Source of the DNA: Bilabrum cf. latius
Lineage: Eukaryota
Assembly: GCA_965178125.1 (NCBI GenBank)
Contig: CBCXTV010000011.1
Coordinates: 1-36,372 of the forward strand
Direction of reading: 5' to 3'
DNA: 36,372 nt
Shown: piece by piece, positions 3,358-27,499 of the stretch
Layout of the letters: each line of letters starts with the position of its first letter
Position numbering within the stretch: the stretch's first letter is position 1
The notes under the pieces: model-generated
The model's input: the letters and a program-made list of their open reading frames with translations, nothing else
Databases searched by the model: none
Told to the model about the DNA's origin: nothing
Made by a program: the position numbers and the translations under genes

Positions 3358-3496
3358 CTCGGTCTCTGCGCGACGCCGCGCGGGTCGCGGTCGCGCCGCT
3401 GCCCTTCATGGCGATTCCGCTCCTCAGGGCCAAAACTGTGGGGACGGGCCCCGGCCGCCGGAGAGGCGGCCATGGCGGTGGGAAAACCGCCGCCGC

Positions 3497-6760: not shown

Positions 6761-7022
6761 GGTCGAGAGACACCTCCCGCCTGGCCTTCACGTTCATGAC
6801 TGCTTGAGCCGAAGCTGTACGTCACGAAGAAGGACATGACCACATAGCGTAGAACCATGGCTGCGCGCAAGGGAATGCTGGTTGTTTTCCGAAGTGAGCG
6901 CAAAGGAAGGCGCAGGTGAGAAGTGTCAAAGGGGCTATACAAGCGAAGAAACGCAAATGGCTTGCTGCAGCATTAGCCTGAGCCGTAGCTGCAAACAGGT
7001 TGACCAAATGCACTGCGAGTCT
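6761..7022 (-). repeat. 3' LTR
   Basis: Identical to 26317-26578 except two substitutions (CCGAAGTGAGCGC vs CCGAGGTGATCGC). Confidence 0.95.
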
Positions 7023-7035
7023 GGTGTGTCCTGGG
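7017..7035 (-). promoter_or_regulatory. Putative plus-strand primer site at the PPT position (non-purine CCCAGGACACACC|AGACTC)
   Basis: Abuts the 3' LTR; an exact 19-nt copy occurs at 20454-20472. Confidence 0.55.
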
Positions 7036-7512
7036 CGAGCTGTACGGCCCAAGACAATCAGACTGCAGGTCGTACATGCTCGAGCCCTGTGTGGCCCGAA
7101 CACTGAACGAAAAGGCACAAAGGGGTTGCGAGGACTGCGCGCGCAGCGCATCGGGCCCGCGTCGGGCCTCTCCTCGCACACAGACTGTACTGCGGTATCT
7201 GCCAGGCCACGCCTGGTGCATCCATTGAACAAAAGGCCGGGGTGCGACAGGAACCACCTGTCCACCCTAAAGGTTCCGACACTGCTGTCGGCTGTACTGT
7301 CACTGGTCGGTCGGGACTGCAGCACCTGCGGGCTTCAGCCGATCGGCATCCACACCGCGGCGCACAAGCGACGTCCGAAGGAGGGAAGCTCCACGGCATA
7401 AACCCACAGGCGTTCGTGCTGGCCCCGTGAGCCGAGCATCCGACTTTCCGACCTCAATGCCCCATTGAACTGAATGCTGAGATGGCTGAGTGAGAGCTGC
7501 CCCGAGTAGGCT

Positions 7513-10500
7513 TCAGCCGATCGGCATCCACACTACTCGGGGCTTCACCACGCTTCTTTCGGACTGCCCATCTGCAACCCAACATAGTCGTTCTAGGGAC
7601 CCCAGTCGGTGATCCTCGTCCTCCATCGGCGCCGTCGTGTCATTCGTCGGGGCCTTGCTCTCCCGGGCCCCAGTCTCGCTGGAGGGACTCGCACTGCTCA
7701 TTTCCTCGTCCTTGTCGTCGTCGTCTTCCTGACTGGTCAACGGCACTGTCTCCACCTCGTTCACAATGCGCTCCATGACGTGGTCCGCATGGCGGCCGAG
7801 CATGGCATGCATGATCGGCGGGAACTTGCCCGTATAGGCGCTCTGGTAGATCCGGGCGATGAACTCCGGGACCGTCATCATCGCGATGCGGTCGCCGACC
7901 TTCTCGGCGATCTCCTTGAACAACTCGGTCCCGATCTTGCTGATCCTCGTCATCGCCTCCTCGTCATGAAAGTCCCCGAATGCGGCCACGTCCTCGTCGG
8001 TCAGCTTGCCGTTGCCCTTCAAGGAGAAATACCACTTCGCGACGTCCGGATGCTCCCTGAGCCACTTGGCACTGACATAAGTCCCGCCGAACCATCGGGC
8101 ACGCGGGAAGGCCTTCTGGAGTCGCCGCTCAAGGAACCGATGGCGTCGGATGTAGGCCTGGATGAACGACAGATTGTCCCACAACACGGGGAAACTGATG
8201 TCCTGCCGCTCGTTCGGCCTGTAGAGGCACTCCTCGCGGCCGAGCTCGTCTCGCCTCACGAGGTGCTGGTAGTACGAACGCTTCCACTCTCCCTGTGACC
8301 ACTCGGTCTCCCAGTAGTTCCGGTACCTCTTCGGCACCTCCTCCTTCAGGGTCAGGTGCCATGGGAGCACGTGGTCATATGCGGGCTGCCACTGGAAGAA
8401 GATCTCCGGCACGTCCACTATGGCCTGGAGGTTGTTCGTGATGTAGGTCTCGATGGCCTCCTGCAAGACGATATTCTGGCGCACCGGCTTCCATGGCTTG
8501 TGGTGGACGGACTCGCTGTACCAATCACTGTCCGAACTGTCGTCGTCGTCACGTAGCGAGATGTGCGCGCTCCGGATGGCGGGCCACTTGGGTGCCCGTG
8601 CGCCCGCCTCGACACGTCGATAACATTGACCCGATGGCTTGCACTGGGCGGCCGTCCGAAGCACAACATTGCCCCTCTCGCGCTGGTCGTGCTCCTGCTG
8701 GGAGAACTTCTCGCGGAGCTCGCAAACACCGCGACAGGGCGTGTAGTAATCTGGAAAGCGGGACAACATTGAGAAGAAAGTTGAGGAAGTGGACTGCACT
8801 GGCCCGATTGCACACGTGCACTCCGCGGCCCACTTCTCCAAGTCCGGCTCGTCCCTGGGCTTCTCCGGGACGAAGTCTGCAAACGCGTTGGCCAATCGGC
8901 GCTTCTTCCGGCGGCCGTCGACCCAGAACTGGAACATGGATTTGGCGAGCGGCTCGACCATTGAACTTGATTCGAATTGGTATCCGATCGCCTTCGTCTG
9001 GTTCTTCGACATCTGGCCGAGGGAAGCAACAAAACCGCCGTTGGCTGGCCTCGCGTTGATTGCGTCAACTGTATCGGCAGGGCTGGTGAACCCAAACATC
9101 CCGGTGAGGAGTCTCAAGCCCTTGTTGTCCTTGTCGATCTCCCGGCCATAGGTGAGCGGTGGAAGCGGCCCGATGACCCCAACTGGTCCCATCGAGCCAT
9201 GGGGAATGCTCCACGGACCGCTCTCCTTCGCCTCGGTCATATAGCCGGTCTCAATCGGCTCATCCTGGCATCGACAATCATTGATCAGAAGTCTGTAGGA
9301 ATGGCATGTGTCCTCGTGGACCTTGGATGCCATGCGCTCCGCCATCTTCTCGGCCATCTCGCGGTAACGGAAACTCGTCGGCCTGCTCGCGGCGCGAGCA
9401 TATCCATTGATCCACGTTGTGCTCAGCGCCTCTCCGACCATCGTAATCGTCGACGAGCTCACCACCTGCTCCTTGCCGTTGCGCATTGCGACCTCGCCAA
9501 GGAGCTCTTTCTCATCGACCCGATAGAACTGGGAGTAGGCGCCCAGGCCGAACAACGAAAAGTCGTCCTTGTCGTACACGGGCCCTGGCTGTTGGTCGTA
9601 GCTCGTGAGGGCCCGGTGCTGGCGAGTGGCCTGGTCATGCTGCTTCTGCTTCTCTTCCTCAGCATTGATCGCGGCGTTCGTGGCACGCAAGGCTGCCCGC
9701 ACCTTCTGGCCGAAGCTCTTGTCGGGGTCAAGAGGATCGCAGACCAAGTCGGCAGCAAGTCCCACGCTGCCTTCAGTCTGTGTAAAGCAACACCCGTAGT
9801 CCGTGAGCTTCCGTCGCCTCAACTTGTGGATGCGGCCGGCCTCGCTGGCCTCGTACCGGCTGAAGACGTCCTGCTCTTTGCCATCCTTGTAGAACCTGCA
9901 ATTCTGGTTGTACAGCGCGGGGTTAAGGTCCGGCGTCGGCGCCACCTCACACATGATGTGGTAGGGAAAGCCGAACGGATCCTCCTCTGGGGTCCCGCGC
10001 TTGAGATCCTCGAGCACCTCGTCCTTGTCCTTCTCCTTGCCTTCGTCGAGCGGTCGGAGGAAGTTGACGTAGAGGCAGTAGCCCAAGATCCGCCTGCCAT
10101 TGACCTCGCGGCCATCTTGAAGCCGCTGCAAAGTCTGGCGGCCCTCTGGTGTCTTGAAGTGCGGAACGAGCTTCGGGTCTGCCCACCACTCGTCGTCCAA
10201 GTTCCACCAGTAGGGACGGATCGGGCACTCCCACTCCGCCTTCCAGTAGTCCCAGCTGGTCTCCTGCGACGGGTCGCCGTCGCCGAACAAGAACCATTCC
10301 TTCGGTGCTCTGAAACACACATCGGCCTCTTTCCCCGGCGGCACATAGGTGTTGTCACAGTCGGTCTCCCACTGCGAGCTGTCTCCGTTCTTGTTGCCGG
10401 GGATCTTGGCCACATGCCAGTAGGCCATTTCCGTGGCGTGGCCGAACCGCCAAAAGAGCCGGTCGTAGTGCTCGGAACGCCGGGTGTCGGTGGTGCCCTG

Positions 10501-13500
10501 CAAGGCACCTGCGTGGAGCCGAATCACCTCAATCTCGGTCTGTCGCGCACTGAAGGGATCGTCATCCTGCACGTCAGCGGGCTTCAGCCGATCGGCATCC
10601 ACACCGCTGACGGCGTCTCCCATTGAACCCATGGCATCTTCCCACACGTCGTCGTCGAACCGTTGGTAAGGCATCACAACGGCCTTCGGGTGCCCGCCAT
10701 CGTAGAACGAGTCCCGTATGCTCCTCTCGCGCGCCCGGGTGGTCTCGAAGCTCGTGCGCATCTGCTCAACCCTGGCACGCAGCGCGTGGGCACTGCCAAG
10801 CTGGTCCAACTGCAATCGCTGCTCAATCTCACCGGTCTTGACACGCTTGTACGCTGGCTCCTCATGCGACGACACGGTGACCATCGCCAGGAGCTCGCTC
10901 TGGTTGGTCGCCAAAGAGGGACACAACTGGGCCTTGCGTCCAAGCGTCCACTCATACCCCTGGTGGGCTGCAGCGGCCCACACACTGGCGCGCGTCGAGG
11001 GCGGATCATCGCGGTTGCGAACAAGGCCTCGGCGCGCACGCTCGACCTGCTCCTCGTCCAAGCGGTCGCGACTCTCATAGAGATGCTTCGAGTCTGCGGC
11101 CCCCACCGGGACGGTGGTGTATGGCATGACATCGTGGCGAATGAACGGTCGTGGGAGTTCGTTCTGGATTGGTGTGTCTGATGCGGAACCGGTGGGCTTC
11201 AGCCGATCGGCATCCACACCACCGGTCCCCTCTTCCATAGCCACAAGGTCCATGCCGTCGCCCTTCTGGTCAAGCAAGGGCGTGGCGCTGGTCGCACTCT
11301 GAGGGGCCAAGCGAGTCTCCAATGCTGTCGGTCGTTTCCGCGGTGCGCCCTGCTGACCGTCATCCCCAAGGGCGAGACTCGCAACCCTCTTCACAATCGC
11401 CTTGATGCACGAAGCCTCCGCCTCGCTGTGCTCGGACTCGTCGGTGTCGCCACCGGCTTGAATGCACGCCACCAACTGCTGCGCGTCCTCAGAGCTGATC
11501 TCGGCCTCATGCTCCACATGGTGGTTATCCGCCGCCTCGGGCGGAGGGGCTGTCGGCCTCGGCGCGCTGTTGAAGGCCGAGCCGTCGGGGAGCCTCGCAT
11601 AGTACTTGTCAATCCTCTGGTCGACCTCCTCGAGGCTCAGGCCCACGAGGCGCGAAAGCCACACCCTATCCTTGACAAAGTCCGGATGCGGCACCTCGAC
11701 ATTGAGCAAGCACTTGGGCGGAGAGCTGAGGCGCTCCTCTTTCTTCGTCAAGATCTGCCACAAGGAGGTGATGTCGCTCTGCTCCAAGCTGTGCGGATTC
11801 ATCCACTCCGTAGCGCGGGAGAAGCACTGCCTCGCCTTCTCCTTGATCGTGGCAACGTCCGGCGAGTCGGCCGGATCGATCGTCAAGCTCCGTTTCGGTC
11901 CCCACGGGAGATTCAACTGGTCCAACGCCGTCCCGATGCAGAAGGTATACACGAATCGGCACAGGGACACATAATCCTCCCGGAGCCACAAATAGGCCGC
12001 TGCAATCTCGTAGGCGTCGCCGATCTGTTCGTCTGTGGAGAACCAAGTGTCGAATGCATCAATGGCGTCGAAGATGTCCTGGAACCCACCATGTCCTTCC
12101 TCATATGCAGCGAGCAACCCGGACAAGCCTTTGTGCTCGTGCACGTACGTGTGGTTCTTGATCGCGACATAACGAGCCCGGGCCTTGAGAATGCCTGCCC
12201 GAAGGAGCAGCTCCGTGGCCGCCCAATCGACAATGAGCGAGCCCAGGTGGCTGAGACACTTGAGCTTGTCCTTGTGGCCCTCGTGACCGAACTTGTTCTT
12301 GAGATCGCACGCAACTCCAACCGCCAACAGGATGTCTTCATTGATCAGGTCTCTGGGGTCGTGCGCCCCTGCGAAATCCCGTAGGTGGATGAGCATTCTT
12401 CCCACTTCGAAGTCAATGTCAATCTGGCGCCTTCCATCCTTGATGTGCGTGTGCGCGTGCAGGAAACTCCTCAGGGCCCTCTCGCACTCCTCGTCGCAAA
12501 TCGGTTGACTGTACGCGAAGGGGTTCGGCTTGAACCAGTGGAGGACAACCATCAGCGTCTGCTCGATGGAAATGGAGCTCTCCAACACACTAGCCGTAAC
12601 CCATCCGCCGTCGTTCGTGCCCCATTGATCAATATGGTCGGCGAACGGATACGTCCTGGTGTTCTGCAGCGGGTTGTAACCGCCTGGGTAGAAGGACGTC
12701 GTCGGCGACCTGTGCTTGGCACGGACCGGGGGGAACATCGAAGCCGTGGCAGCACTTTCGGACGTATAGAAGGAGTGGCATCGCGGGCTGGGCTTCAGCC
12801 AATCGGCATCCGCACCAGCCTCGCCCATCGGCTCGTCACCGTCGCCGTCCTTCTGGCTTTCTTCCGGCTGCTTCGTGAGGTAGGCTTCATTGTTCACTTC
12901 TTCGGCGGTCTTCAACGTGAGTGCGAAGCGCTGGCTCCTTTCCTCGAGCACCTCTTCCTTCGTCTTGACGTCGAACAAGCCCTTGCCACCATTGGACTGA
13001 GGATCGAGGTGGTAGATGAGCTGGTCGAGCGTCGGGAGCGGCCACATGCCGCGCTGGAGGTGCTCCGCCCCTGGGATCATTCGATAGTGTAGCCTGCCGT
13101 TGCTGATCATCTCCAAGACAAGCCGTGCTCGAGCCCGCCACTTCTGACCCTTGTCGCCTGTGGCGGCCTCGTGAGCAAACTTGCGATTCCTCTTGTTGCG
13201 CTGGAAGTCGGCCTTGCTCTCGAACTGGCCCGGTCGCTTCCTCTGGTCGTAGCTGCCAGACCCGGAGACGACCTGAACGGCCTCCTGCTGCTGCACAAGG
13301 CTCAGCTCTGGCGACGAGAGACGCATGTTTGTTGGCGCGGCACAAGTCGTGGAGATGGCATTCCCGCCGGCGTCAATCAACTTCGAGCCGCTGGCATCGG
13401 TCAACGCGCCGGCCCTGTCATTGATCCAACCAACTTCGATCGCGTCGCGCGTGCCACCGGCTCCCTTCGGATGGTGGTTGTTCATCTCAATGGTATACGG

Positions 13501-14127
13501 CACGAGGAAGCTGTAGTCCAAATGTCGCCCGCCGCCGAGGGTGCTGCCCAAGTCGTGGTAGTGGCGGTCGACAAACCTCGTGCCCTCTGGGGTGACCTTG
13601 CCCTTGGCGACGACCGCCTGGTACTTCTGAGCCAAAAGACTCTCGGGTGCGCCATGTCCAAGCCGGGCCCTGGCGATCTGCTTGAGGTCCTGCCGCTTCG
13701 CAGAGCCGCTCTTGAACTCGTTCTCCAGGGTGCGCTTTCGGCTGAAATCATTGAACGGCGGGATGTCACCCTCATAGCTCTCGAGATCCATCACAAAGCC
13801 CGGCCTACATCGCACTGTCACCTTGGCGCACTTGGCCCGCAAGTCTTTGAAGATCCGCACATGGTCGTTGCCGTCGTGGAGAACGCGCGTGTTGAAGTCG
13901 CCTCCCTCGTCGAATCCAACGACGCACTCCGTCATGTCATTTTGCAAATCCACCGGGTCAATCTCATACTCGACAATGGCATCCCGGATAGCGTACTTGT
14001 CAACGTACTCCGGAGGCGTAGCCAAGAGGTAGACGTGGGTGATGTGCAAGTCCTCGGGGCGGAAGCCGTAGGTGGGAGACGTGCTGAAGCCCCGCCAAAG
14101 GTAAGCTGTTCGGCTTGGCGACCGCAC
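7513..14127 (-). CDS. Large extra ORF (2204 codons) downstream of pol; likely +1-frame continuation of ORF2; function mostly unknown
   Basis: 6.6 kb stop-free inside the LTRs, with no ATG at its start. The N-terminus (YLWRG...YGFRPEDLHITHVYL) appears to complete the ART-like domain begun in ORF2. Confidence 0.85.
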   Translation of the reverse strand: MRSPSRTAYLWRGFSTSPTYGFRPEDLHITHVYLLATPPEYVDKYAIRDAIVEYEIDPVDLQNDMTECVVGFDEGGDFNTRVLHDGNDHVRIFKDLRAKCAKVTVRCRPGFVMDLESYEGDIPPFNDFSRKRTLENEFKSGSAKRQDLKQIARARLGHGAPESLLAQKYQAVVAKGKVTPEGTRFVDRHYHDLGSTLGGGRHLDYSFLVPYTIEMNNHHPKGAGGTRDAIEVGWINDRAGALTDASGSKLIDAGGNAISTTCAAPTNMRLSSPELSLVQQQEAVQVVSGSGSYDQRKRPGQFESKADFQRNKRNRKFAHEAATGDKGQKWRARARLVLEMISNGRLHYRMIPGAEHLQRGMWPLPTLDQLIYHLDPQSNGGKGLFDVKTKEEVLEERSQRFALTLKTAEEVNNEAYLTKQPEESQKDGDGDEPMGEAGADADWLKPSPRCHSFYTSESAATASMFPPVRAKHRSPTTSFYPGGYNPLQNTRTYPFADHIDQWGTNDGGWVTASVLESSISIEQTLMVVLHWFKPNPFAYSQPICDEECERALRSFLHAHTHIKDGRRQIDIDFEVGRMLIHLRDFAGAHDPRDLINEDILLAVGVACDLKNKFGHEGHKDKLKCLSHLGSLIVDWAATELLLRAGILKARARYVAIKNHTYVHEHKGLSGLLAAYEEGHGGFQDIFDAIDAFDTWFSTDEQIGDAYEIAAAYLWLREDYVSLCRFVYTFCIGTALDQLNLPWGPKRSLTIDPADSPDVATIKEKARQCFSRATEWMNPHSLEQSDITSLWQILTKKEERLSSPPKCLLNVEVPHPDFVKDRVWLSRLVGLSLEEVDQRIDKYYARLPDGSAFNSAPRPTAPPPEAADNHHVEHEAEISSEDAQQLVACIQAGGDTDESEHSEAEASCIKAIVKRVASLALGDDGQQGAPRKRPTALETRLAPQSATSATPLLDQKGDGMDLVAMEEGTGGVDADRLKPTGSASDTPIQNELPRPFIRHDVMPYTTVPVGAADSKHLYESRDRLDEEQVERARRGLVRNRDDPPSTRASVWAAAAHQGYEWTLGRKAQLCPSLATNQSELLAMVTVSSHEEPAYKRVKTGEIEQRLQLDQLGSAHALRARVEQMRTSFETTRARERSIRDSFYDGGHPKAVVMPYQRFDDDVWEDAMGSMGDAVSGVDADRLKPADVQDDDPFSARQTEIEVIRLHAGALQGTTDTRRSEHYDRLFWRFGHATEMAYWHVAKIPGNKNGDSSQWETDCDNTYVPPGKEADVCFRAPKEWFLFGDGDPSQETSWDYWKAEWECPIRPYWWNLDDEWWADPKLVPHFKTPEGRQTLQRLQDGREVNGRRILGYCLYVNFLRPLDEGKEKDKDEVLEDLKRGTPEEDPFGFPYHIMCEVAPTPDLNPALYNQNCRFYKDGKEQDVFSRYEASEAGRIHKLRRRKLTDYGCCFTQTEGSVGLAADLVCDPLDPDKSFGQKVRAALRATNAAINAEEEKQKQHDQATRQHRALTSYDQQPGPVYDKDDFSLFGLGAYSQFYRVDEKELLGEVAMRNGKEQVVSSSTITMVGEALSTTWINGYARAASRPTSFRYREMAEKMAERMASKVHEDTCHSYRLLINDCRCQDEPIETGYMTEAKESGPWSIPHGSMGPVGVIGPLPPLTYGREIDKDNKGLRLLTGMFGFTSPADTVDAINARPANGGFVASLGQMSKNQTKAIGYQFESSSMVEPLAKSMFQFWVDGRRKKRRLANAFADFVPEKPRDEPDLEKWAAECTCAIGPVQSTSSTFFSMLSRFPDYYTPCRGVCELREKFSQQEHDQRERGNVVLRTAAQCKPSGQCYRRVEAGARAPKWPAIRSAHISLRDDDDSSDSDWYSESVHHKPWKPVRQNIVLQEAIETYITNNLQAIVDVPEIFFQWQPAYDHVLPWHLTLKEEVPKRYRNYWETEWSQGEWKRSYYQHLVRRDELGREECLYRPNERQDISFPVLWDNLSFIQAYIRRHRFLERRLQKAFPRARWFGGTYVSAKWLREHPDVAKWYFSLKGNGKLTDEDVAAFGDFHDEEAMTRISKIGTELFKEIAEKVGDRIAMMTVPEFIARIYQSAYTGKFPPIMHAMLGRHADHVMERIVNEVETVPLTSQEDDDDKDEEMSSASPSSETGARESKAPTNDTTAPMEDEDHRLGSLERLCWVADGQSERSVVKPRVVWMPIG

Positions 14128-17100
14128 GAAAGACGGCGGTCATGGGATGCGTGCCGTCCATGGCCAACATCGTGCCCTGAGGAAAATCCTGGGTCTCCGT
14201 CACCTGCGGATACTGACACGCCTTCTGGAAATCCTTGGTCATCCGCGCCATCGAGACTTCTGCCGACGGTCGTACCACAAAGGCTCCATTGATCATCTCG
14301 ATCGGGGGCCTCCGCCGCTGCTCCTCCGGGGTAGTGTTGCCGAGGTACCACGCACCGGCGGTGAGCGATCCGGTGCCGTAGCTCGGCGCAAAGCCGTGTC
14401 GGAGGATGAGCGGCACACACGAGGCCCACGTGCCATGGTAGAAGCACTCCGGCTCATCACCGAAGTCGCCCGGGATCGGGGTGCCATTGGGAATGCTCAT
14501 CATGTAGCCCGGCGGCATGACCGTCGCGGCAATCGAAAGCGTCTTCTGATACATCACCTTGTTGCTGGGCCACACGAACGAAGAATCCGGGTAGGATCCG
14601 GCATGCCGACACTCCAGGAAGAAATCATTGATCGAGGCGCGAGGCACATGCATCAACGGAAGGCTCACATCGGCCTGCTTCTGGACCGTCTCGTACTTGT
14701 ACGCGTACTCAAGCACGTCCAAGGAACTGACGGCCGTGTTGATGCTGCGGGGAGGCAGCAACTCCTCCTGCCTGATCAAGCTGGCCCGGAACGCTATGTT
14801 CTGATGGACCATGTCCGCGCTCGGAAGCCTGGAGTCCGGGAGCCGCTGCTCGTACTCCGGAAGGGCGACCCACGGATGGCCTTCACCCAAGTTCCGCTCG
14901 TACAGGAGCGGCTCGTCTTCGTACTCGTCGAAAGGCGGGTCCCATGGACCCCATCGCTGCTGCGCGTGCTGGTCCTCGTGGTGGTCCCAACGCTCATCGT
15001 CGTTCCATGCGTACTGGGCCCACCTAGCGTCACTCCACCAAGAGCGCTCCGGCTCCTGGTGTTGAGGCCAACCCCACTGCTGGCCCTCGTTGCTGGTGTA
15101 CGTCTGCTGCTGCGCCTCCCTGCCCGAAGTCCAGTGGCTACTGGATGACGACCACTGCTGTGTCGAGGAGGAGGCGCTGGGAATCGAATTCGGTTGACCG
15201 GTGGGGTTCAGCCGATTGGCATCCCCACCACCGGTCCAAGAGCTGCCGCTGCGCTGCCCGCTATTCCCGTCCGTCCATCCAGAATGCCAGCCGCTGCTGC
15301 CGGCCGACATCACGAAAAAGTATGATGCGACGGGTGATCTACTGGAGCGGGCGGTGCACGACACAACTTGGGAGCAGTCCCCTGGGACCGGAGTCCTAGA
15401 AACGGCTACTGGCGGGAGGACGCACACATAGTGAACACCATCCTCGGCAGGGCGAAAGCACGGACGCGGCGAATGGCTGTGAGAGATGACTGAATCGACG
15501 TGGCCTGCCGACTTCAGCCGATCGGCATCCGCACGACAGGCCACACGCATGTTGCTGTGATACGCCGCGCCATCGCCCATGTCGCCCACAGGCCGTTTCG
15601 CAGACCACACCTCTGATGCATGCTGAACCATCATGCTGCCGGACATCAACGTATGCAACAAATCGCGAGACACGGCCCCCTTGGTGAGGCCATCGGCTGT
15701 CATGTCGCGCGTGTCAAGCCAGACCATCGCAGACAAGACCCGATGATCCAAAAGCTCGCGCAAGTATTGAACATGCACGAACAGCGACTTGTCTGCCGGA
15801 ATCTTAACAGTGCTGGCGGTGACAGCTGCATAGACAGACTTGGCATCAACGTACAAAGACATGGGGACAAATCCGCCGTTCTCACGTCGCGCGCGCGCAC
15901 TCTCTGCTGTCATGGGCCCGGTCTCGACTTCGCGCAGCATTTGTGCGACCAGAATGCCCTGGTCGACCGCATCTCCCGCCGAGAGAAGCTCGGCGGCAAA
16001 CGTGCTGCGCGTAACATGCCTTTGCGACCGGCATGCCCACTCAATGACATGCGCTGGGGCTGTTTTGGTGAAGGAAGGATGTTGGCTGGTGGGGTTCAGC
16101 CGATCGGCATCCCCACCACCAGCCCGTCCGGCATCCTGCTGCTCTGCCTTGCCACTCGTTTCGCACCGGAGGAACAGCGCCCCTCGGAGGCTGTACCCGT
16201 CCTCCGGCTCCTTCTTGAATGCCGCGTCCGACACCACACGGAGGTGTGGGACGCTTGTCCGGTCAAAGGGTGCGAAGTGGAGTTTCTTGGGGTTGCGCTG
16301 CACCCAACGCAGCACCCGATTGAGCTTACGGGCATGCTCCACTCGTGGCTTGGCAACATTGCGCTGGAGCGCGCAGATGAAAACAAGAATATCAACACGG
16401 GTGTGTGCCAAGTATGCCAATGCGCCCAACAAGGATCGATACAGAGCATGCAATTCCGCCCCGGCCTCGTCACTATCGGCTCCGGACGAGACCTGTGGAT
16501 GCGCGATGGGCTTCAACGTGTTCGCAAAATGGATTTGGTCCAAGGTGACCGCAAGGGTCTTGGGGCATTGAACATGGCGCACACCACAATTGGTGAACTC
16601 ATACTTGTTCACCTTGAGTTCGCCGAAGACCTTCTGAATCTCGGTCAGGACCGTCTGGACAACTGCAGGGTCTCCAGCGAACTTTAAGTCATCAACATGC
16701 TTGGTCATTACCAACTTCAGATCCCCCTGCTTGTCATGGTAGTAGCACAACTCTTGGTCGATCGTACTCGGCTGTAGGCCGCACTTGTCCCTCGTGACCA
16801 TCTGCAACTTGAGAGAGAAGGCACGGGGTGCATCAACCAGGCCCGTGCCCGGCTTGTCACAGTGCAGCACCTCTGTGCGGGGATCGAAGGTCTCGAAGCC
16901 TGGAATCTGTCGGAGTTGGGACATGTTGTATGCCGGAAGATAGAAGTTAACCTCGCGTGCTGGCTCCCCTGTGAGCTTGGCAAGCTCCTCATACGTAACA
17001 CCCTGGAGGAAAGCCTTCGAGATGTCAGCGGCACAGAGAACCCAGCCGCGAAGAACGGCCTCCGACACAATGAGCTTCTGCGAGCCTCTGGTCGAGGTTC

Positions 17101-18724
17101 CAGCGTAGCGATCGATGTCCCACTTGTCAGCGTCCTTGAAGCCACGCACAGTAAGCCGTGCTCGGATCGTCCTCTTCGCGGTGGCAGACGAGTTCTGGAA
17201 GCCAGCCTTGGTTGCATCAACAGTCTGTTCCTCGTACTTGAATTTAAACACCCACCGCGTGTCGATCACATTCCACGCTTCCGTCTTCGGCTTCCGGCTG
17301 AAACACTGCAGCTTCGCCCAAGTCTGGAGCTCCTTGAGCATGGCTCCCTCGATTTCCGGCCAATGTTCATTGACCTGCTGGGGAGAGAGAACATCGTCGT
17401 CCCGCTGTACCACGGCACGCCTGGTATTGTTGGTCTCAACCTTCAGCACCAACTGCTCGTTGGACCGGACGGCCTGGCCGCCGGTACACATGAGATTCGC
17501 CGTGGGATAGGGGACGATGAGCTCCACACTGTCACCGAGCGTCTCGGGGGCATGGAGCGTGGAAGTCGTGTGGCCAAGGACATTGAGCTCGAGAAAGAGT
17601 TCCAGCGGGAGACGGTCTTCTGGTTGAAAGGAACTGTGAGGATCTGCCGGCTTCAGCCGATCGGCATCCACACGGCAGTCCTCGTTTCCCGCATCGCATG
17701 CCTCTCCCGTCGTGCCTGCCAACAGGACCATCTCGAGAACCTGCTGCATAGCCGGGTCCTCATGGACAAGAAACTCGGAAAGGAGAGACTGCCTGGTCCC
17801 ATCGCTCTCGTCCAGGTCGCTACTGCGCTCTTCTGGGATTGTCGACAACCTCGGCGCACTATCAGTGGCAACCGACGATGTACCCGACAGGACGGCACCG
17901 TTTTGCTGGGCCTGCTGCTCGACAAGGTCCACAGACTCCGCGTTGCAGTAGAATTGGATCACGCAGTAATTCGCCCAACATGGGCCCACTGCGGCCTGCA
18001 CGGAGAGTCGTGGTATACGGCCGGCGTGGTCTGCAACCTGTTCGTGGAAGACATACGGACCACCTCCCCGTGGCCACATCATACTGACACACAACTCATG
18101 TCCATGCGTTCCTCCGATGTGGCGCACTCCAACGCCGGCTTTGACCGCAACAACGTTGTCGAGCTGAAGATGGTTCTCGCCAAAGAATCGGGCCGCGCAC
18201 AAGAACTCCGCCCTGAACTGCGGCGAGAGCGGGCTCACGGTCCTGCGCCAGCCACTTGGCGTCTTCTCCGGGCCCAAGTTGATGGTGGTGCCTTCATTGA
18301 TCTGGTTTACCATTCGCACCACGGTCGACCACACAGTCCGATGCACGGGGCTGTTGTAGGTCGCGTAGGAAAGGTCCAAGGTGAAGTAGGAGAGATGGCG
18401 CCTGACATGACGTATCGCCACCTCATACAATCCCCGCAACCATCGCAATGTGATCATGCCCCGGGACAGGTTGGTCAGGTCGACCACAGTGGCTGGGCCA
18501 TACCATCCAGAGACGTCCTTGGTCGATGGCTCCCGGAAGAAGTCGACTTCGTCGCCCAACTGAAGATTGAGCTGCTCTCCGGCCATCGTCGTACGAGTGT
18601 TGAGCGCCCGACTGATCCTTGCCTGGGCCGACCCCTCGACCACAGCCTGCACTGGGCAGGACATGCGGCACTCGACCATAGACGGCATTGTACGGAGTCG
18701 AACCATTGACTGTGAGAAGCGCAT
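14000..18724 (-). CDS. Copia Pol part 2: integrase C-terminal domain, reverse transcriptase, RNase H, low-complexity linker, ART-like domain
   Basis: IN C-terminus (GDEVDFFR...WYGPATVV). RT: IDTRWVFKFK, RARLTVRGF, ADISKAFLQG, GLVDAPR, HVDD at 16688-16699. RNase H: SDAAF, RSTFAAE, YVDAKS, ADGLTK. ART-like: FYHGT...GF...DFQKACQYP. Confidence 0.93.
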   Translation of the reverse strand: MRFSQSMVRLRTMPSMVECRMSCPVQAVVEGSAQARISRALNTRTTMAGEQLNLQLGDEVDFFREPSTKDVSGWYGPATVVDLTNLSRGMITLRWLRGLYEVAIRHVRRHLSYFTLDLSYATYNSPVHRTVWSTVVRMVNQINEGTTINLGPEKTPSGWRRTVSPLSPQFRAEFLCAARFFGENHLQLDNVVAVKAGVGVRHIGGTHGHELCVSMMWPRGGGPYVFHEQVADHAGRIPRLSVQAAVGPCWANYCVIQFYCNAESVDLVEQQAQQNGAVLSGTSSVATDSAPRLSTIPEERSSDLDESDGTRQSLLSEFLVHEDPAMQQVLEMVLLAGTTGEACDAGNEDCRVDADRLKPADPHSSFQPEDRLPLELFLELNVLGHTTSTLHAPETLGDSVELIVPYPTANLMCTGGQAVRSNEQLVLKVETNNTRRAVVQRDDDVLSPQQVNEHWPEIEGAMLKELQTWAKLQCFSRKPKTEAWNVIDTRWVFKFKYEEQTVDATKAGFQNSSATAKRTIRARLTVRGFKDADKWDIDRYAGTSTRGSQKLIVSEAVLRGWVLCAADISKAFLQGVTYEELAKLTGEPAREVNFYLPAYNMSQLRQIPGFETFDPRTEVLHCDKPGTGLVDAPRAFSLKLQMVTRDKCGLQPSTIDQELCYYHDKQGDLKLVMTKHVDDLKFAGDPAVVQTVLTEIQKVFGELKVNKYEFTNCGVRHVQCPKTLAVTLDQIHFANTLKPIAHPQVSSGADSDEAGAELHALYRSLLGALAYLAHTRVDILVFICALQRNVAKPRVEHARKLNRVLRWVQRNPKKLHFAPFDRTSVPHLRVVSDAAFKKEPEDGYSLRGALFLRCETSGKAEQQDAGRAGGGDADRLNPTSQHPSFTKTAPAHVIEWACRSQRHVTRSTFAAELLSAGDAVDQGILVAQMLREVETGPMTAESARARRENGGFVPMSLYVDAKSVYAAVTASTVKIPADKSLFVHVQYLRELLDHRVLSAMVWLDTRDMTADGLTKGAVSRDLLHTLMSGSMMVQHASEVWSAKRPVGDMGDGAAYHSNMRVACRADADRLKSAGHVDSVISHSHSPRPCFRPAEDGVHYVCVLPPVAVSRTPVPGDCSQVVSCTARSSRSPVASYFFVMSAGSSGWHSGWTDGNSGQRSGSSWTGGGDANRLNPTGQPNSIPSASSSTQQWSSSSSHWTSGREAQQQTYTSNEGQQWGWPQHQEPERSWWSDARWAQYAWNDDERWDHHEDQHAQQRWGPWDPPFDEYEDEPLLYERNLGEGHPWVALPEYEQRLPDSRLPSADMVHQNIAFRASLIRQEELLPPRSINTAVSSLDVLEYAYKYETVQKQADVSLPLMHVPRASINDFFLECRHAGSYPDSSFVWPSNKVMYQKTLSIAATVMPPGYMMSIPNGTPIPGDFGDEPECFYHGTWASCVPLILRHGFAPSYGTGSLTAGAWYLGNTTPEEQRRRPPIEMINGAFVVRPSAEVSMARMTKDFQKACQYPQVTETQDFPQGTMLAMDGTHPMTAVFRAVAKPNSLPLAGLQHVSHLRLPPRGLAHHPRLPLGYASGVR
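14030..14450 (-). other. Gig2/PARP-like ADP-ribosyltransferase-fold domain spanning the ORF2/ORF3 junction
   Basis: FYHGTWASCVPLILRHGFAPSYG...TKDFQKACQYP...AVFRAV resembles the YHGT..I...GF..S...SRD..KA..YP pattern of Gig2/NEURL4-like ART domains. By-eye similarity only. Confidence 0.65.
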
Positions 18725-21700
18725 TGCCTGCGAAGACTGCCTCGGCGAGCACCCGGTCGAACGGAACGTTCAATCCGTCCTCCTTGCACTGTGTCACGAG
18801 TCGGTGCACGCAGTCTCGGAAAAGAGCGCCCCGTCGTTCGATGTATCTCGCATGCGTTTCTTTGGGGCGCACCACCAGGCGCACACCATGGTGGTTCAAG
18901 AAAAGCTTCGCATCGTCGCTGCCGGAAATGCCTCCCTCACCATCCATGATGAGCTCCTTCGGTGGGCCATGCGTCTGGAACCAAAGTCGGGAAACGCCAT
19001 TGATCAATGTGGACGCCTCCTTGTTCGGAATCACCTCGGCCGCATGCCACCTCGTGCAGCGGTCGAGCATGTGGAGGATGGTGTGCCCAGAGATGAAGAG
19101 CAGGTCGCACTCGACCTGTTCATTGAACCGATCCGGAATCGCTGAGTTGCTCGCACTCGTCGGCCCTGGTCTGCTCCACTCGCGACACACCGTGCACGAG
19201 TGCACGATGCTGGGCACCAAGTCCAGTGCCTTCTGCGGGACTCCTGCTCGATGGAGCATGCGCGTGAGAGTCTGGGCCGAGGCATGCCACCACCTGACGT
19301 GCAGCTTGCGCAAGACACGGCGAATGACTGCCTCATTGTTCGTCCGGAGGGCCCGGACCGAATTGCCGATGTCAAAGTGGGTCCAATCCGGCTGCGGCGC
19401 CTCGCCGACAGCAACGTCGGCGTGGCGCGGCCTTTGAACACGTCGTGGTCCGCCTTGGCCCTGTCCATCGGCTGCATCGTCTGGCACCTCCACCACATCC
19501 GGAGGCGGTGGCGGCGCCGGCCTGTACTCAGCTGGTCCAGAGCTACGAGTGGTTAGGTCGGGCGAAGCGGCTTCAGCCGATCGGCATCCACGCGCTTCGC
19601 CACGTTGTGCACGATCTGCCGCTATCACACGCTCCTCGTCAGCCGTGCCCATGGGGCGGCCGTCAGGATCAACCGGGGCGAGCCTCGCCGTCGGCTCGCT
19701 CGTGTCAGGAGGTAGCACCTCATGTGGACGGTCGCCGCGGGCAGCACGGGTGACTGGCACATATCCGGAAGCAAATCGGCATTCTCCAAAGCGTAGCGTG
19801 TGGGCAGGATCGTTCCGTTGGAATCTGTCTCGGCATGCCTGACACCCTGGGTGGAACGGAACAACATGGGGCCACGCACACTGGCCCACAATGCGGCTGT
19901 GTGTTGGGTCGTCCATGGCAATGTTGCGCTGGCATGCCGGACACAGGCAAGCCTCGTTACCAGGAGGCGCACGTCGGTCTCGAGCTGGCTTCTGTCTCTG
20001 TCCGTGGGGTCGTGGCACCAGCTGCGGCCCTGCCTGCGGTGCTGCTCCGGAGCCGGAGCTGGAGGAGGCTGCTCCGACCGGATACACGGCAATGCTTTCA
20101 TTGATCTGTTGCTCGAAACCGACCTCGACTGGGTAGCGTCCCACAAGGAGTGCAGGGTCGCCACCCAACGAAGCGAGATCTTCACCGCAATCGTCGAAGT
20201 GGTCCTCGACGATCTTCGCCCTCTTCTTGGCAACGTGAGGGTTGCCCGCCTCTTTCTGCATCTTGCGTCGCTCCTTCTCCTTCTGCTTCGCTTCGGTCGG
20301 AAACGCCAAGACTTCTCGATCGTGCTGCTGCTCCAACTGGTTGCCACTGTGTCCTGCTTCTGGGGCCTGCTGCGTCTGGTTAGTCGTGTTCACGTGTAGG
20401 TGGTACTTGTTGGATGGCCTGCTGGGTCCGCCCGCGGGCGGGCTCGAACTGCTGAGTCTGGTGTGTCCTGGGACGCCCTGAACCGGACCGCCAGACGGTA
20501 CCACCTTCGCGCCCAAGAGGATCAACAAGGCAACCACAAGCAACGCAAAGATGCGGCGGAACATGCCGCATGTAGTCCCTCTCGTCGGAATGGAATCGCC
20601 ATCTGTATCATCTGGAAGGTGGCATGTGCTGGCGACGTACACCTGCCGGTTGTCGCCGCTGTCGGGGACGAAAGTGCGAATGCCTCGGCGGACGAAGCGG
20701 AAGATGTCCGTGCCATGTATCTTGTTCCAGATGTCAAGCCAAGTGTGTCGCTGGCTCTGTCGCCTGCCATCGGGCACCGAGAACACGGTGACGCTCGTGC
20801 CAGAATTGATGGCGGGCAGAACAAGACTCTTCAACGTGTGCTCGAACCCTGGGTTCATCCGTGGGGGGACCTCGATGAGCAGCTGCTTGCCCTGCCACGG
20901 GAGATGGTCCTTGTTGTGTGCGCGCATCGCATCGGACAAGCGGTGCAAGGCACAACCGTTCAACCCGTGGTCTTTACAGATGCTCAACTTCTGGCGGCTG
21001 CCAATCATGTGCGCGGTTCCCATCACAAAGAATGCACTGAACCCTGAAGCATTGAACACACTGCACGGATAGGCTGCGGAAGGCTTGTCAAAAAGGGCCC
21101 CACCAGCTTCAGCCGATCGGCATCCACATGGTGGGGCCTGCTCTGCCTCTGGCCACTCGGCGAAGTCCTGTACCGTGGTCTCGAGATGGACCGGGAGAAT
21201 CGGGGGCGCCTGCGGTGCCTGACACTTCGGCATGGTCGGCGCCACCGTGCGAAACGTCATCACCTCGCTCTCGGTCGGCTCGACCACGGTCGGCTGCTCG
21301 CTGCTCTCCTGCGTCAACAGGCTTATCTTCCTCGTCGCCAGGTTCTTCTCGCCAAAGTTGCTGCAGGGGAGCAGAAGGTGTCCACTGGGTGACGTCTCGA
21401 GCTTGAAGCTCTCCGTGCCGGGAGGCAAAGCCTTCGTCAAGTCATAGTCCCCTTCGCCGCAGAAATACATGCGCATGTCCTGGAGGTCAAGGATCGCACG
21501 GGCATTGCGCATGGTGGCCAGGCCCAAGAGGCCTGGCAGTTCCGAGTTCGGAACAATCGGGGTCGTGAAGTCACCCAAAATGGCATCGGCCCTGGTGTCG
21601 GACTTGAGCACAATGGGCAAACGCACGTCCTTGTTGCACCACTGCGATCCGTGGCCGACCCCTGAGACACGGAGGGGCTTCGGCCTGGTGTGCTCCGACG

Positions 21701-24700
21701 GGCGATGCCCGTGCTCAATCGCCTGAAGTCCGAGCTTTCGGGCCCATTGGTCACCGCAAAGATTGCCCACAGAGCCTGGGTCGATGAGGAGGGCGCTGCT
21801 GCCGTCAATGGGCCTGGTGTTCATGTGATAGTAGTCGCCTGCTCCACTGACCCGCAGCTGCGCGTCCGGGCAATGCATGTTCTCGCACGTCGTGTAGTGA
21901 GTGGCCTCGCCCACTCCTATCGGCGCCGTGGTGGTCGTCTGTGGCTCGTTCTGCGTCGTCGTCACCTCGTCCTCCTCCGCACTCGGGCTGAACTCGGGGT
22001 CCACCTGCAGCAACTGGAGTTCCGGCCTGAACAGTGCATATTGCCGAAAGGCCTGCTTGACCTTTGGAGTCCAAGCCGCAATCGGAGTGCGTAGGAGACC
22101 GTCGACTCGATGGGAGCCGGGCTCTGCAATGCCCGGCGGATGGACAGCCCATAGCACGGGGGCGTTCGCCAAGCTGTCACGAGAGTTCCCTTCAGAGTCG
22201 ACATAGGCCTTGGCATAGATGGCCTCGTTGCACTTCGGACAGACCAAGTAATGGAACAGAGAGTCGCACGCATCGGATCCGTGCAAGTGAGTGTCATAGT
22301 CCTCGATGGCCTGCTCATACTTGGTCCGAAAGGCATTGTACTCCTGCATCTCATACTCGCCGTAGCACTTGGCATGCAGACGGCATCCACATGAGAGAAC
22401 CACCGTGTTGGGCTCGGCGGACTCGTTGTGGCCATCGCCATGCTTCGCCTTGTACCACGGCTGCTGGCAGATGACACAGGAGTCGTGGTGGTGATCGTGG
22501 TGCTGCCCCTGCTCCCCAACAGGCGGTCCCGCCGAGCTGCCAGCGACGACGCTGTCACACAGAGGTGCCGGCGTTGCTGTCGCCGCGGGCACTGCATCCG
22601 CGCGGGTTGTGGCTCGCCGGACCTGCAAGGGGTGCTCCACCGGCGTGTCGGGGGCGGCACGCTTCTCCACGGACGATTCGCGGGCTTGCGACGACGACTG
22701 CGCTGATAGGCTGGGACTGCGCGAGGCACGCCTTCGGCGCGGCAAGTCCTTCTTCTTGTTCTCCTTCTGAAAGTGTGTCCTCCGACTCGCACGTCGTGAA
22801 GCTGGCGCCCGTGCCGGTGCGGGAGTACCTGCGGGCACGGGGGCTATCGCCGGGGCTGCCTGCTGAATCGACTCGGCTGCCGCACGGAACGTGGAGGACA
22901 CATCGAAGGTCGCGTCGTGCATCAAAACGTCCTGGCTCGCCGGCATGGGGGCCAAGATCGGGTACGTGATCGGCGTTTCGTCGAGCATGACTACGCTCCC
23001 AATGCCTGAGGTCGCTGCCGACGGCGGCGCGGCCGTAGGCGGACGGAGCTGTGGTCTCCACTCGGCAAGACCCGCACTGCCTTGGGCACTCGCAACCGGC
23101 GTCGGGGGCGCAATGGTATAGCTCTGCGTGGTGGTGCTCCCCAGGGCGCTCTGTGCCGCGCTGAACACATTGAACGCCACGTTCGTCAGAGCGCCCCACG
23201 CCTGGCCACCGACCGAGTGAATTGCAGATTGGCTGGCGGGGTTCAGCCGATCGGCATCCCCACCACCAGCCTGTCCGGCATCCACAGCGTGCACTGGCAT
23301 CGTCGGGCCAGCGAATGTGCCATACATTGAACGACCCGGAACCGGATGTGTCCTTTGCGTACTTACACTGCCGCTGCTGGCCGAATTCCTGTCTGGCGTA
23401 AAAGACACAGGTGCGCTGGGGGTGTACAATGGGATGCCCGTGGTGTTGGGATTGTCCACATGGTCTGCGGTCGGCGGCTGTGCGCTCCCGGCTGGCCTTA
23501 AGTTCGATGTTCTCGGGGCCGGTGTGGGCTGCGCTGGCTGGAGGCCGGCGCTCTCCACGCCCTGGTATGTTGGGCCCACAGCGGCACCGGAAGTCTGCAC
23601 GGAGGCCTGCACAAGGGTGCGCTCGTAGATTTCCTTGCCGATCTTGTCACGCCAGCATTGGCCCATTTCTGCAATGTAGTCACGAGGCTGCCGCGGTCCC
23701 TCGAACTGATCTACTCGCCGCGGTCCCTCAGACTGTTCCGCCTCTTGTTGTTGCCGCTGGAGGTCCCGGTTCGATCGGATCACCTCGGCCAGGTGAAAGC
23801 TGCCGGGCCGAACATTCAAATGGTCGGCGTCCCGGTAGAACTGGGGGGCGAAGTGTTCCTTCTTCTGCTTGGTGTGCTTGAAGAGATCCAACACTGTGTC
23901 GCTCACTCGGTCGGCTGCTCGGTCTGTGCTGGCAATCAGGTGCCTCTCGCCATCGTCACGATGGCAGTAGCCCTGCTGCCGTTGGTAGCCGTCCAAGCGC
24001 TTCCTCTCGAACAAAGTCGGCCAGTGTGGGAGCTCCTGATTCATGGTCAGCGACTGATACTTCTTGTCCCAGGTGTATGTTTCCTTCTCGTCCAACTTGC
24101 TGGTGCCACTGTCGCCATCAGCGTACGACGGCTGCTGACTGCTTGCACTCGCGGGGAGATAACCTGCCCTCACCAGACTCGGCACTGAGCCACTGCTCGT
24201 GGAGCTGGCGTGTGAGGCGCCTGCGTCGTCGCTGTACTGGGAGTTCGTCATGAAAACCTGGCGAAAGTCACCAGATCCAGGGGATTGTTCAACCTGGAGG
24301 TGGAAAAGGACTGTGGAATGTCCATTTCCCACTGGGGCACGCGCGAGCTCTTCGTCGCTCCAGAGAGAGCCGGACGTGTCGACCGGCCTCGCCATGTGTT
24401 CATTGACCATGAAACCCTGGAACATCGGATTGCGCTCGGCGGGCCCTTGCGAGAAGGAAGATGCCGAACCTGGGCCCATCTGCCATTGAGACCACGAAGT
24501 CCCACCATAGTGCGTGAGCTGATCGTTTCCGGGTTTTCCTCCTTTCCCACCGGCCTTCTGAGGGCAGCGAGCGGCAAAGTGATCCTCAGACCCACAGATG
24601 CGGCACGTCATCACCTTCCCATCGGTTCCAACAGGGTTCCGCATGCGCCCGAAACCTCCTGCTGAGGAAGACTTGCCTTTTCCTTTGCCTTTGCCCTTTC

Positions 24701-26414: not shown

Positions 26415-26578
26415 GGCTGCGCGCAAGGGAATGCTGGTTGTTTTCCGAGGTGATCGCAAAGGAAGGCGCAGGTGAGAAGTGTCAAAGGGGCTATACAAGC
26501 GAAGAAACGCAAATGGCTTGCTGCAGCATTAGCCTGAGCCGTAGCTGCAAACAGGTTGACCAAATGCACTGCGAGTCT
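26317..26578 (-). repeat. 5' LTR
   Basis: Direct repeat of 6761-7022, followed by the PBS on the minus strand. Confidence 0.95.
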
Positions 26579-27499
26579 CCTCCGACCGCGGCCGACGCCA
26601 TGGACAGCATGTTTTGCGTATGTCGCAGGCGTTCCGCCGTCTCCTCACGCGCGTTTTCACGCGCGGCGAGTTCTTGTCGTCGGGATCGTTCTCTGTAAAA
26701 AGCCGGGACGGCCCAGCTGCTCTCGTCGTCCCAACTGCGGCCGTTGTTCCCGTTGTTGCCGTTGGAGTAGTACCCCGCATTGTCTGATCGCTGGCGACCC
26801 CACCAGTTCGGCATCAATCCAAGTCGTTGAGGCGCACCGTCGGTGCCGCTTGCGCTGCCGGCGGAGCTCCCGCCGGGTCCCCGCGGCTGTCTGCCGGAGG
26901 TGCACTGGCGTCCCGCAACAAGCGACGCGCCACGTCGCGGTGGATCGGGTCCGCACTGATGCGCAGATGTCGCACCCACGAATGCCACACGCCAAGCTCT
27001 CGTGGTTGACACGGCCCCCAACTGAGCAGTTGTCGCCGGCACACCACGGTGGTGACCCGAGAGATGTAGGTCAAGCGGCACACGACCGCCACTTCAAACC
27101 CGGATTGGCAGTAGTGGTACAAGGCGGCGCCGTAGAGGCCCTGCCGCTGGGCGTCCATACCCCCCCGGCGGCCGGTGCGCTGCGTCGTCCGTACGGAGCA
27201 AAAACGGCGCGGCGGGCGCCACAACTGCCACCGGGGCGGAGGCCAGCATCGGAGACATCGCCAACTCACGCAGGCACCGACTGACACACCACTCACGAGC
27301 TCTTGTGCTTTACTCCAGACGTGTTTCCGGACATTCCCAACTCCATTCGATGCCAGCTTCGTGGCCGGCGATCATCGACACTGGCTCACACATCTCACGT
27401 TCAACGTTCTGCATGGAGTGAAACGCGAGACACACAACCTGACACACCACTCGAGCGCCACACACCGGATGCACTTCAAACGCCCGACCGACATCGAGC

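Follow-up and report, generated by a model that had tools for sequence, protein, structure and literature searches.

ADP-ribosylation is a main currency of the conflicts between hosts and their viruses or transposons, and the participants recognised so far stand on the host side, as with the PARPs, ZAP and TASOR, or belong to bacterial and phage systems. Retroelements are acted on by both ZAP and TASOR, according to the accessible text of the respective reports (PMC4441479, PMC10578480). Enzyme domains have also been found within retrotransposons: the accessible text of one study describes DNMT domains captured by elements of dinoflagellates and charophytes, states that the abundant copia superfamily is without DNMT, and makes no mention of ADP-ribosylation (PMC5890265), and the accessible part of a preprint reports a PARP-family protein fused to a Ty3-type integrase and reverse transcriptase (RT) in one Fusarium species (bioRxiv 10.64898/2026.07.25.740670). 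A literature search covering few subscription journals and no supplements found no paper on an ADP-ribosyltransferase (ART) or PARP-like domain in copia-type elements. A candidate for such a domain is described here from a stretch of 36,372 nucleotides of Bilabrum cf. latius (assembly GCA_965178125.1, contig CBCXTV010000011.1, positions 1 to 36,372; the window hereafter), where a long terminal repeat (LTR) element of ~19.8 kb spans positions 6761-26578 on the minus strand. An initial annotation, made from the sequence alone, had placed an ART-like domain downstream of RNase H at 14030-14450. With a probability of roughly 0.7, we consider this stretch to be the core of a ~210-residue PARP-like ART-fold domain within the C-terminal extension of the polyprotein of a Ty1/copia-type element, and the domain to be a pseudo-PARP in the lineage to which the window's element belongs.

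A PARP-like domain family

The motifs that first drew attention to the domain, namely HGT, GF and D..KA..YP, are real, and all lie inside 14030-14450. Near its end, the minus-strand open reading frame (ORF) that encodes the RT, ORF2, reads ...ECFYHGTWASCVPLILRHGFAPSYG...KDFQKACQYP..., with H-G-T at 14429-14437, G-F at 14390-14395, A..YP at 14207-14221 and, counted by hand in the ORF2 frame, the D of DFQKA at 14231-14233, all on the minus strand. They fall on columns conserved across a protein family (H81/G82, G95 and A127/Y130/P131). The full domain exceeds the flagged stretch, running from ~14653 to 14011 on the minus strand, as delimited by the profile matches. Two further expectations of the initial annotation were borne out: RVT_2, an RNase H-like region and the domain share one open frame (14000..18769), and the peptide contains a frame change, a one-nucleotide insertion at 14103/14104 that splits the domain.

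A 300-residue query ending at the ORF2 stop, searched against 1.84 billion representative proteins, recovered 61 proteins (representative clusters) at E<=1e-3, seven of them at E<=1e-10, including a close relative with 62% identity (P0001); all ten of the family members looked up were metagenome, transcriptome or assembly records. When these matches were built into a local family profile of ~211 positions, the window piece upstream of 14105 aligned to profile positions 3-171 (E 5e-51), and the piece downstream of 14103, read in the frame of ORF3, to positions 174-208 (E 6e-8). The 61-protein family and the profile matches to both pieces rule out a chance resemblance of motifs. Conserved columns are spread over the whole length of the family: R17, F27, W29, P30, H81, G82 (in YHGT), G95, G101 and G103 in the N-terminal half, followed by Y119 (VPGVY), A127, Y130, P131, D155, G156, P159, R161 (DGTxPxR), R165 and W175, with Q181, F184, P186, I191 and H193 (ITH) towards the C-terminus. 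As judged from these alignments, the domain defines an uncharacterised protein family distinct from the Pfam PARP family.

This family very probably has the ADP-ribosyltransferase fold of the PARP type. The AlphaFold model of one member (P0010), made with a 40-sequence family alignment, had a predicted local distance difference test score (pLDDT) above 90 over most of residues 1-245, and its top Foldseek matches in the PDB were all ART domains of PARP4, PARP1, PARP2 and PARP16 (best E 1e-4, probability 1.00), at TM-scores of 0.18-0.39 and with large root-mean-square deviations (rmsd). An exhaustive VIA-align search with the same model, which is independent of Foldseek, listed PARP-type chains or Tpt1 in all of its first 18 rows, with Z-scores of 8.3 for PARP16, 8.2 for PARP13, 7.9 for PARP4, 7.7 for PARP10, 6.0 for the TASOR pseudo-PARP and 5.9 for Tpt1; the other PARP-type rows were PARP1, PARP15, PARP2, tankyrase, PARP3, RCD1 and SRO1, and the rows that followed were mostly ADP-ribosylating toxins. 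The window's own domain, read across the break with an X at TTAC (P0084) and folded with the family rows, gave a model with a pLDDT of 85.7 and a predicted template modelling score (pTM) of 0.81. Its top Foldseek match was PARP4 (E 9e-4, probability 0.99), followed by PARP16, PARP2, PARP1, PARP10, PARP12 and PARP14. PARP ART domains thus rank first in both kinds of structural search, upholding the annotation as ART-like.

Sequence comparisons tend in the same direction. Alone, the window piece matched Tpt1 and PARP10 among PDB sequences at E ~1, aligned at the HGT motif, and the 40-sequence family profile matched PARP10 (E 0.002), Tpt1 (E 0.006) and PARP15 (E 0.4). Pfam PARP appears below threshold in 11 of the 64 relatives scanned, and one relative (P0051) carries a WWE domain above the cut-off (27.1 versus 21.1 bits), with a second WWE below it (P0052); several PARPs are accompanied by WWE. 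In a language-model (Atlas) feature search, PARP accounted for 17 of the 30 nearest clusters. The case for the fold is well supported by these predictions, and rests on the coherence of the match lists rather than on any single score.

The initial annotation had likened the domain more specifically to Gig2 and NEURL4, which contain PARP-like ART domains. No Gig2 or NEURL4 model or structure occurs among the Pfam, PDB, Foldseek or VIA-align matches, and no direct comparison with Gig2 or NEURL4 sequences was made.

Three further searches concern the distribution of the family. A word-based search of long proteins with the domain (region 1340-1555) returned no match, which reflects the sensitivity of the search rather than absence; an alignment of the window with P0001 found no relative in metagenome contigs; and the domain alignment found no relative among viral contigs. 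In metagenome contigs the domain alignment matched three short loci. At two of these (L001, 585-1215, and L003), ~590 nt intervene after DGTLPLQAV in a relative of the domain. These were at first taken for an intron and hence for a sign of cellular genes, which was rejected as evidence, as the intervening sequence has a direct repeat of 5 nt, ATAAG, at its borders and no GT-AG reading; it may be an intron of the introner kind or else a transposon that duplicated 5 nt of its target on insertion.

Catalytic positions, copies and polyprotein context

The H-Y-E triad anticipated for such a domain is not present. Instead the family has H-Y-Q together with an invariant R and a further invariant H, and the window lineage keeps only the two H. 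Across the 47 family members containing most of the domain, H-Y-R-Q-H (columns 81, 119, 161, 181 and 193) is almost invariant, with 95% conservation at H81, 88% at Y119 and 89% at Q181. The corresponding window residues are H-R-T-T-H: H73 (codon 14435-14437), R137 (14243-14245, where the family has Y), T172 (14138-14140, family R), T194 (14071-14073, family Q) and H206 (14035-14037). The first of these belongs to the beta1 motif FYHGT (14429-14443), and aligns with the His of HGT in PARP10 and Tpt1. The close relative P0001 shares the window's R and first T, and its sequence stops before the remaining positions. Overall, the window retains 28 of the 33 columns that are at least 85% conserved, those lost being V13, V118, Y119, R161 and Q181. 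The residues beside R137 are S and A in the window copy, and P and V in other copies (VPxVR); the Arg and Thr states themselves are not among the copy variants listed, which are the best-supported 40 of 146.

The models place the His of HGT on the first core strand and the Tyr of VPGVY on the following one; the penultimate strand, at the start of which the catalytic Glu sits in the ART fold, begins with Q215 in P0010 (column Q181) and with T194 in the window. From this we infer that the family Y and Q occupy the positions of the nicotinamide-stacking Tyr and catalytic Glu of PARPs. The H-Y-R-Q-H form is probably enzyme-like because of this placement. The ancestral element-borne form, as seen in P0085, would then probably have a NAD+-binding, PARP-like cleft and be a mono-ADP-ribosyltransferase-like enzyme, acting after cleavage from the polyprotein; its targets could include a protein of host defence or chromatin or, by a Tpt1-like reaction, phosphorylated nucleic-acid ends of the element itself. 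In the window lineage, with Arg for the stacking Tyr and Thr for both R161 and Q181, canonical ADP-ribose transfer would most likely be lost, and the domain would persist, if active at all, as a binding or scaffold module. We regard it as reasonably probable, on the residues at these positions, that the domain is non-catalytic in this lineage.

It is unlikely, though worth weighing first among the alternatives, that the window-lineage domain is still an enzyme that uses NAD+ with altered chemistry, for example in a Tpt1-like reaction on phosphorylated RNA or DNA ends of replication intermediates, through H73, R176, H206 and the new R137. Tpt1 is the closest local match in VIA-align (23% identity, rmsd 2.7 Å over 83 residues); the E-value of 0.006 between the family profile and Tpt1 is joined by sub-threshold Tpt1 matches (PF01885) in three of the 64 relatives (13.6-14.5 of 26 bits). 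The family also has an extra invariant R and H that PARPs do not, and retention of most conserved columns is combined with the purifying selection among copies described below. Against such an enzyme, three of the five invariant polar residues are replaced, including the nicotinamide-stacking Tyr; Tpt1/KptA structures (Z 5.9, 4.4 and 4.0) score below 17 PARP-type chains; and neither the N-terminal lobe nor the Arg-His-Arg-Arg tetrad of Tpt1, which was not mapped, was identified.

The behaviour of the domain across copies was examined by comparing contigs of four public runs from four studies (X1, X5, X6 and X8) over 13600-14900, a stretch so highly repeated that it is represented by 2898 contig pieces in X1. 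The only recurrent indel within the domain concerns one base absent at 14103, found in contigs of all four runs. Relative to these, the window carries an extra base on the minus strand (14103..14104, one of two T's), which introduces a +1 shift. Contigs without it numbered 16 in X1 (depth 31964 of 58360), three in X5 (270.5 of 425.5), four in X6 (71.4 of 71.4) and three in X8 (37.9 of 37.9), and copies of this form read ...KPNSYLWRG... in one frame, like the relatives. In the window copy, translation in the RT frame stops 35 codons past the insertion, without the last two strands, so that this copy would be unable to make a complete domain and its domain would be non-functional. Of the 40 best-supported variants among 146, 20 are synonymous in the two frames. 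With one triple change in a single codon set aside, this makes 20 of 37 single-site variants, where the observed mutation spectrum would give 27% (P 4e-4). By this measure, the domain region has evolved under purifying selection among copies.

These data bear on whether the domain is a passenger, that is, a captured host or element fragment decaying with no role for the element. Such an origin would fit the loss of the putative catalytic residues, the frameshift in this copy and the abundance of the frameshifted form in two runs, as well as the lack of the domain in most RT relatives. We nevertheless hold it to be improbable, given the excess of synonymous variants, the confidently predicted fold with its 28 of 33 conserved columns kept, the ~2150 further codons over which the ORF stays open, and the retention of the domain after RT in elements whose RTs are 43-58% identical.

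As a separate observation on the same region, the four runs read G for A of the window at 26-32 places within 13600-14900, versus A for G at 13-16. On the coding strand the window copy therefore has T where others have C, a pattern compatible with C-to-T decay of the copy or with GC-biased evolution.

Related elements place the domain in a polyprotein. The local profile detects it in four of the 120 listed RT relatives, in each case after RT: P0085 (RT 58% identical to that of the window, domain at 788-1107), P0129 (45%), P0130 (44%) and P0132 (43%). H, Y, R and Q are retained in each of the four, and in P0085 so is the last H. The conservation of the motifs in homologous elements, which the initial annotation had left to be checked, therefore holds in these four. 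Other family proteins appear to stand alone, yet several of them are probably fragments of element polyproteins, because P0045 starts with a tail that follows RNase H in the relatives, and P0044 shares sequence with P0085 beyond the domain.

That the domain forms part of the Pol frame in intact copies seems likely. A separate downstream gene, starting at the Met codon at 15308-15310 (for instance on a subgenomic or spliced RNA) and encoding an accessory protein of ~2600 residues with the ART-like domain near its N-terminus, is about as improbable as a passenger. In its favour, P0001 is called from the equivalent Met, many family members have the domain 30-300 residues from an N-terminal Met, and most RT relatives stop just past RNase H. 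Yet in the window the frame is open from RNase H through to the domain, P0085, P0129, P0130 and P0132 each hold RT and domain in one called protein, and on fragmentary contigs a gene caller will simply choose the earliest Met. Programmed +1 ribosomal frameshifting at 14103/14104, tuning the output of the extension, is strongly disfavoured, for even though the shifted form is multi-copy in X1 and X5 and Ty-type elements in general use +1 frameshifting, copies without the extra base read through and are the sole form in X6 and X8, the break lies inside the folded domain between two strands, and by eye the site is unlike the slippery sequences of Ty1 and Ty3.

Several observations weigh against a PARP-like, element-borne domain as we propose it. 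Firstly, the Foldseek TM-scores of both models are low (0.18-0.41), with rmsd mostly of 7-21 Å, and VIA-align Z-scores do not exceed 8.3, values that are common for models without a true match according to the tool's note. Secondly, the window pieces match no Pfam family even at an E-value limit of 10, at which the HMMER filters drop most matches above ~0.1, and none of the 64 relatives scanned reaches the PARP (PF00644) cut-off, the best scoring 20.6 of 26.7 bits. Thirdly, the catalytic placement of Y and Q comes from strand order in the models, with no residue-level superposition. Fourthly, the extra base is kept in a large share of the X1 and X5 depth; the frameshifted form is therefore a multi-copy variant, and not an assembly slip. 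Finally, most of the 120 RT relatives end a few residues past RNase H, with only the four carrying the domain, and a quick midpoint-rooted tree, read without regard to branch supports, scatters the element-linked domains over three positions, so that it shows neither a single ancient capture nor its direction.

Architecture of the host element

The element is bounded by LTR-like direct repeats of 262 nt on the minus strand, the 5' copy at 26317..26578 and the 3' copy at 6761..7022, which a repeat comparison showed to differ at 2 of 262 positions. Its termini are not TG...CA, and the 5-nt flanks, GGAGG and GGGGG, agree by eye at four of five positions. Directly after the upstream repeat on the element strand is TGGTAGCGGAGC, which by eye is like a tRNA primer-binding site; as it resembles initiator-tRNA sites, we take it to be a candidate primer-binding site.

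The first part of the polyprotein is encoded by ORF1 (18423..26528, minus strand, 2701 codons stop to stop), identified by its frame and Pfam matches as gag-like followed by integrase. It contains a zf-CCHC match at residues 641-657 (E 1.4e-3; 19.1 bits, below the 20.8 cut-off) and an rve match at residues 2468-2552, also below cut-off (E 2.4e-3 and 3.4e-4 in two Pfam scans). RT relatives align to ORF1 from residue ~1880 to 2638, and then run unbroken into the RT part; in those of the P0086 type, one protein covers ORF1 to residue ~2625-2638 and ORF2 from residue 40. Because relatives hold the integrase and RT parts in one protein, the +1 break between ORF1 and ORF2 in the integrase C-terminal region, placed at 18615..18655 (minus strand) from the alignment ends of relatives, is read as a second copy-specific frame change.

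ORF2 is the stop-to-stop frame from 18769 to 14000 on the minus strand (1589 codons). Its residues 501-715 (16625..17269, minus strand) match the copia-type reverse transcriptase RVT_2 (PF07727, E 9.2e-7; 29.1 bits against a cut-off of 31.6). An integrase upstream of a copia-type RT, with both matches beneath their Pfam cut-offs, is, together with the terminal repeats, the arrangement by which the sequence is classed as a Ty1/copia-type LTR retrotransposon. A search of long proteins with the RT/RNase H-like region gave 128 homologues at E<=1e-10 (best E 4e-228), many of them annotated with PF07727 and PF00665, in that order, and one named RE2 (Symbiodinium pilosum); this similarity points to copia elements of the dinoflagellate type. 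The RNase H-like region itself (15680..16237, minus strand; VVSDAAF ... AELLSAGDA ... YVDAKS ... ADGLTK) is conserved in RT relatives and is named from the resemblance of its motifs by eye, having no match in Pfam or PDB sequence searches. It is joined to the ART-like domain by a W/Q/S-rich linker without a Pfam match (14654..15319, minus strand), which contains the internal Met codon at 15308-15310; the equivalent Met begins the closest relative, P0001.

Beyond the frame break, ORF3 (7513..14139, minus strand, 2208 codons) supplies the end of the ART-like domain and then ~2150 codons, ending in a TGA borne by a hairpin. It has no Pfam family and no similarity to the 120 RT relatives, and the homologues of its residues 440-1040 are near-identical copies only. 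An Atlas feature search with ORF3 gave weak leads only, with a best score of 0.86 and with RNase III clusters scoring 0.81-0.83, under the level at which the tool is to be trusted; an RNase III-like protein would be of interest beside the element's hairpins if the lead were true, but the lead so far has no support. Once both breaks are read through, the element would encode ~6400 residues in one frame, in the order gag-like, integrase, RT, RNase H-like, W/Q/S-rich linker, ART-like domain and ~2150 residues without a recognisable family. Other extra polyprotein domains occur in RT relatives, namely dUTPase (PF00692), DnaJ (PF00226) and RING-type domains (PF17123/PF13639) in P0117, P0160 and P0163, and this copia lineage seems prone to gaining accessory domains.

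A ~22-nt core, GTGGATGCCGATCGGCTGAAGC, with the inner palindrome GCCGATCGGC, occurs in 13 copies against 0.58 expected by chance. The cores start, on the minus strand, at 25171, 23255, 21121, 19585, 17665, 16108, 15526, 15220, 12807, 11211, 10596, 7525 and 7347, such that all 13 are inside the element and on its coding strand. Each is flanked by 9-11-nt arms that differ between copies and are complementary within them, giving the same predicted hairpin, with an outer stem, a 4x4 internal loop GGAU/UGAA and a 3-bp apical stem. Pairing is found in 88.5% of cells, compared with 67.8% in shuffles (0/500 reach this value), and compensatory changes occur at 12 of the 13 outer pairs. Translation reads through 11 of the copies, using two frames (..DADRLKP.. 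or ..CRSAEA..), while a third frame of the core supplies the TGA ending ORF3; the copy at 16108 has been inserted into a variable loop of RNase H. The motif is present in P0001 and absent from the 120 RT relatives; no Rfam family is found in the window at the gathering threshold, and no paper with the motif was found. From this distribution, the hairpins could be dispersed protein-binding signals, for packaging or export, or a mobile mini-palindrome.

The flanks of the element are GC-rich (64-78% GC) and contain long minus-strand frames at 2107-3405 and 27372-28625 with RT-like YVDN/YVDD motifs by eye; the element therefore sits among other retroelement remains. A GC-rich tandem repeat with a 27-nt period lies at 1491-1815.

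Comparison with described systems

The initial annotation had suggested that the domain could be an anti-silencing, toxin or competitor-exclusion effector. This is speculation; the sole functional signal in the data is purifying selection among copies. A wider proposal is put forward tentatively: that giant single-ORF copia-type elements of dinoflagellate-like protists carry a PARP-like family of their own, as an H-Y-R-Q-H enzyme or a pseudo-enzyme, with a counter-defence or nucleic-acid- or chromatin-modifying role, and that the 13 hairpins serve as packaging or export signals on a ~20-kb RNA. If true, the family would be the first among ARTs to be carried chiefly by retroelements. An uncharacterised ART family of the H-Y-R-Q-H type, sometimes with WWE, is open to biochemical testing, and the occurrence of H-Y-R-Q-H and H-R-T-T-H in one element family offers a natural experiment on enzyme versus pseudo-enzyme.

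A close likeness is to the PARP catalytic domains of the H-Y-E clade, especially mono-ARTs such as PARP16, PARP10 and PARP4, which share the fold and the beta1 motif 'YHGT ... I..GF'; most members of the family also have a Tyr on the core strand that follows. The resemblance to PARP16 extends to its N-terminal helical part, which is aligned by VIA-align, and an ARTD15_N cluster is listed by the Atlas search; the WWE of two relatives, one of them sub-threshold, is a further feature in common with PARPs. The family differs in having Q in place of the Glu, Ile or Tyr at the third position, and in its extra invariant R161 and H193 and its DGTxPxR and ITH motifs, and the window lineage departs further, with R, T and T at three sites, in a domain borne by a retrotransposon polyprotein. 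Tpt1/KptA RNA 2'-phosphotransferases have the HGT motif and local structure in common with the domain, but their Z-scores are lower than those of PARPs, and PF01885 is reached only sub-threshold.

The pseudo-PARPs are likened to the window lineage in a different respect. PARP13/ZAP, the DUF3715 domain of TASOR, and the plant proteins RCD1 and SRO1 have the ART fold (Z 8.2, 6.0, 6.9 and 6.4) with catalytic residues replaced, as they are in the window lineage. These are host defence or regulatory proteins, whereas the window domain is encoded by the element, and no relation at the level of sequence was found between them. A PARP-like domain in the polyprotein of a eukaryotic LTR retrotransposon would add a player on the transposon side. 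In this it resembles the DNMT and Fusarium captures, which, as far as the accessible text of those reports goes, likewise place an enzyme domain of chromatin or defence type in a retroelement ORF. Yet the Fusarium case, in the accessible part of the preprint, is one gene model of Ty3 type, whereas the window domain belongs to a new family that is of copia type and conserved in several diverged lineages.

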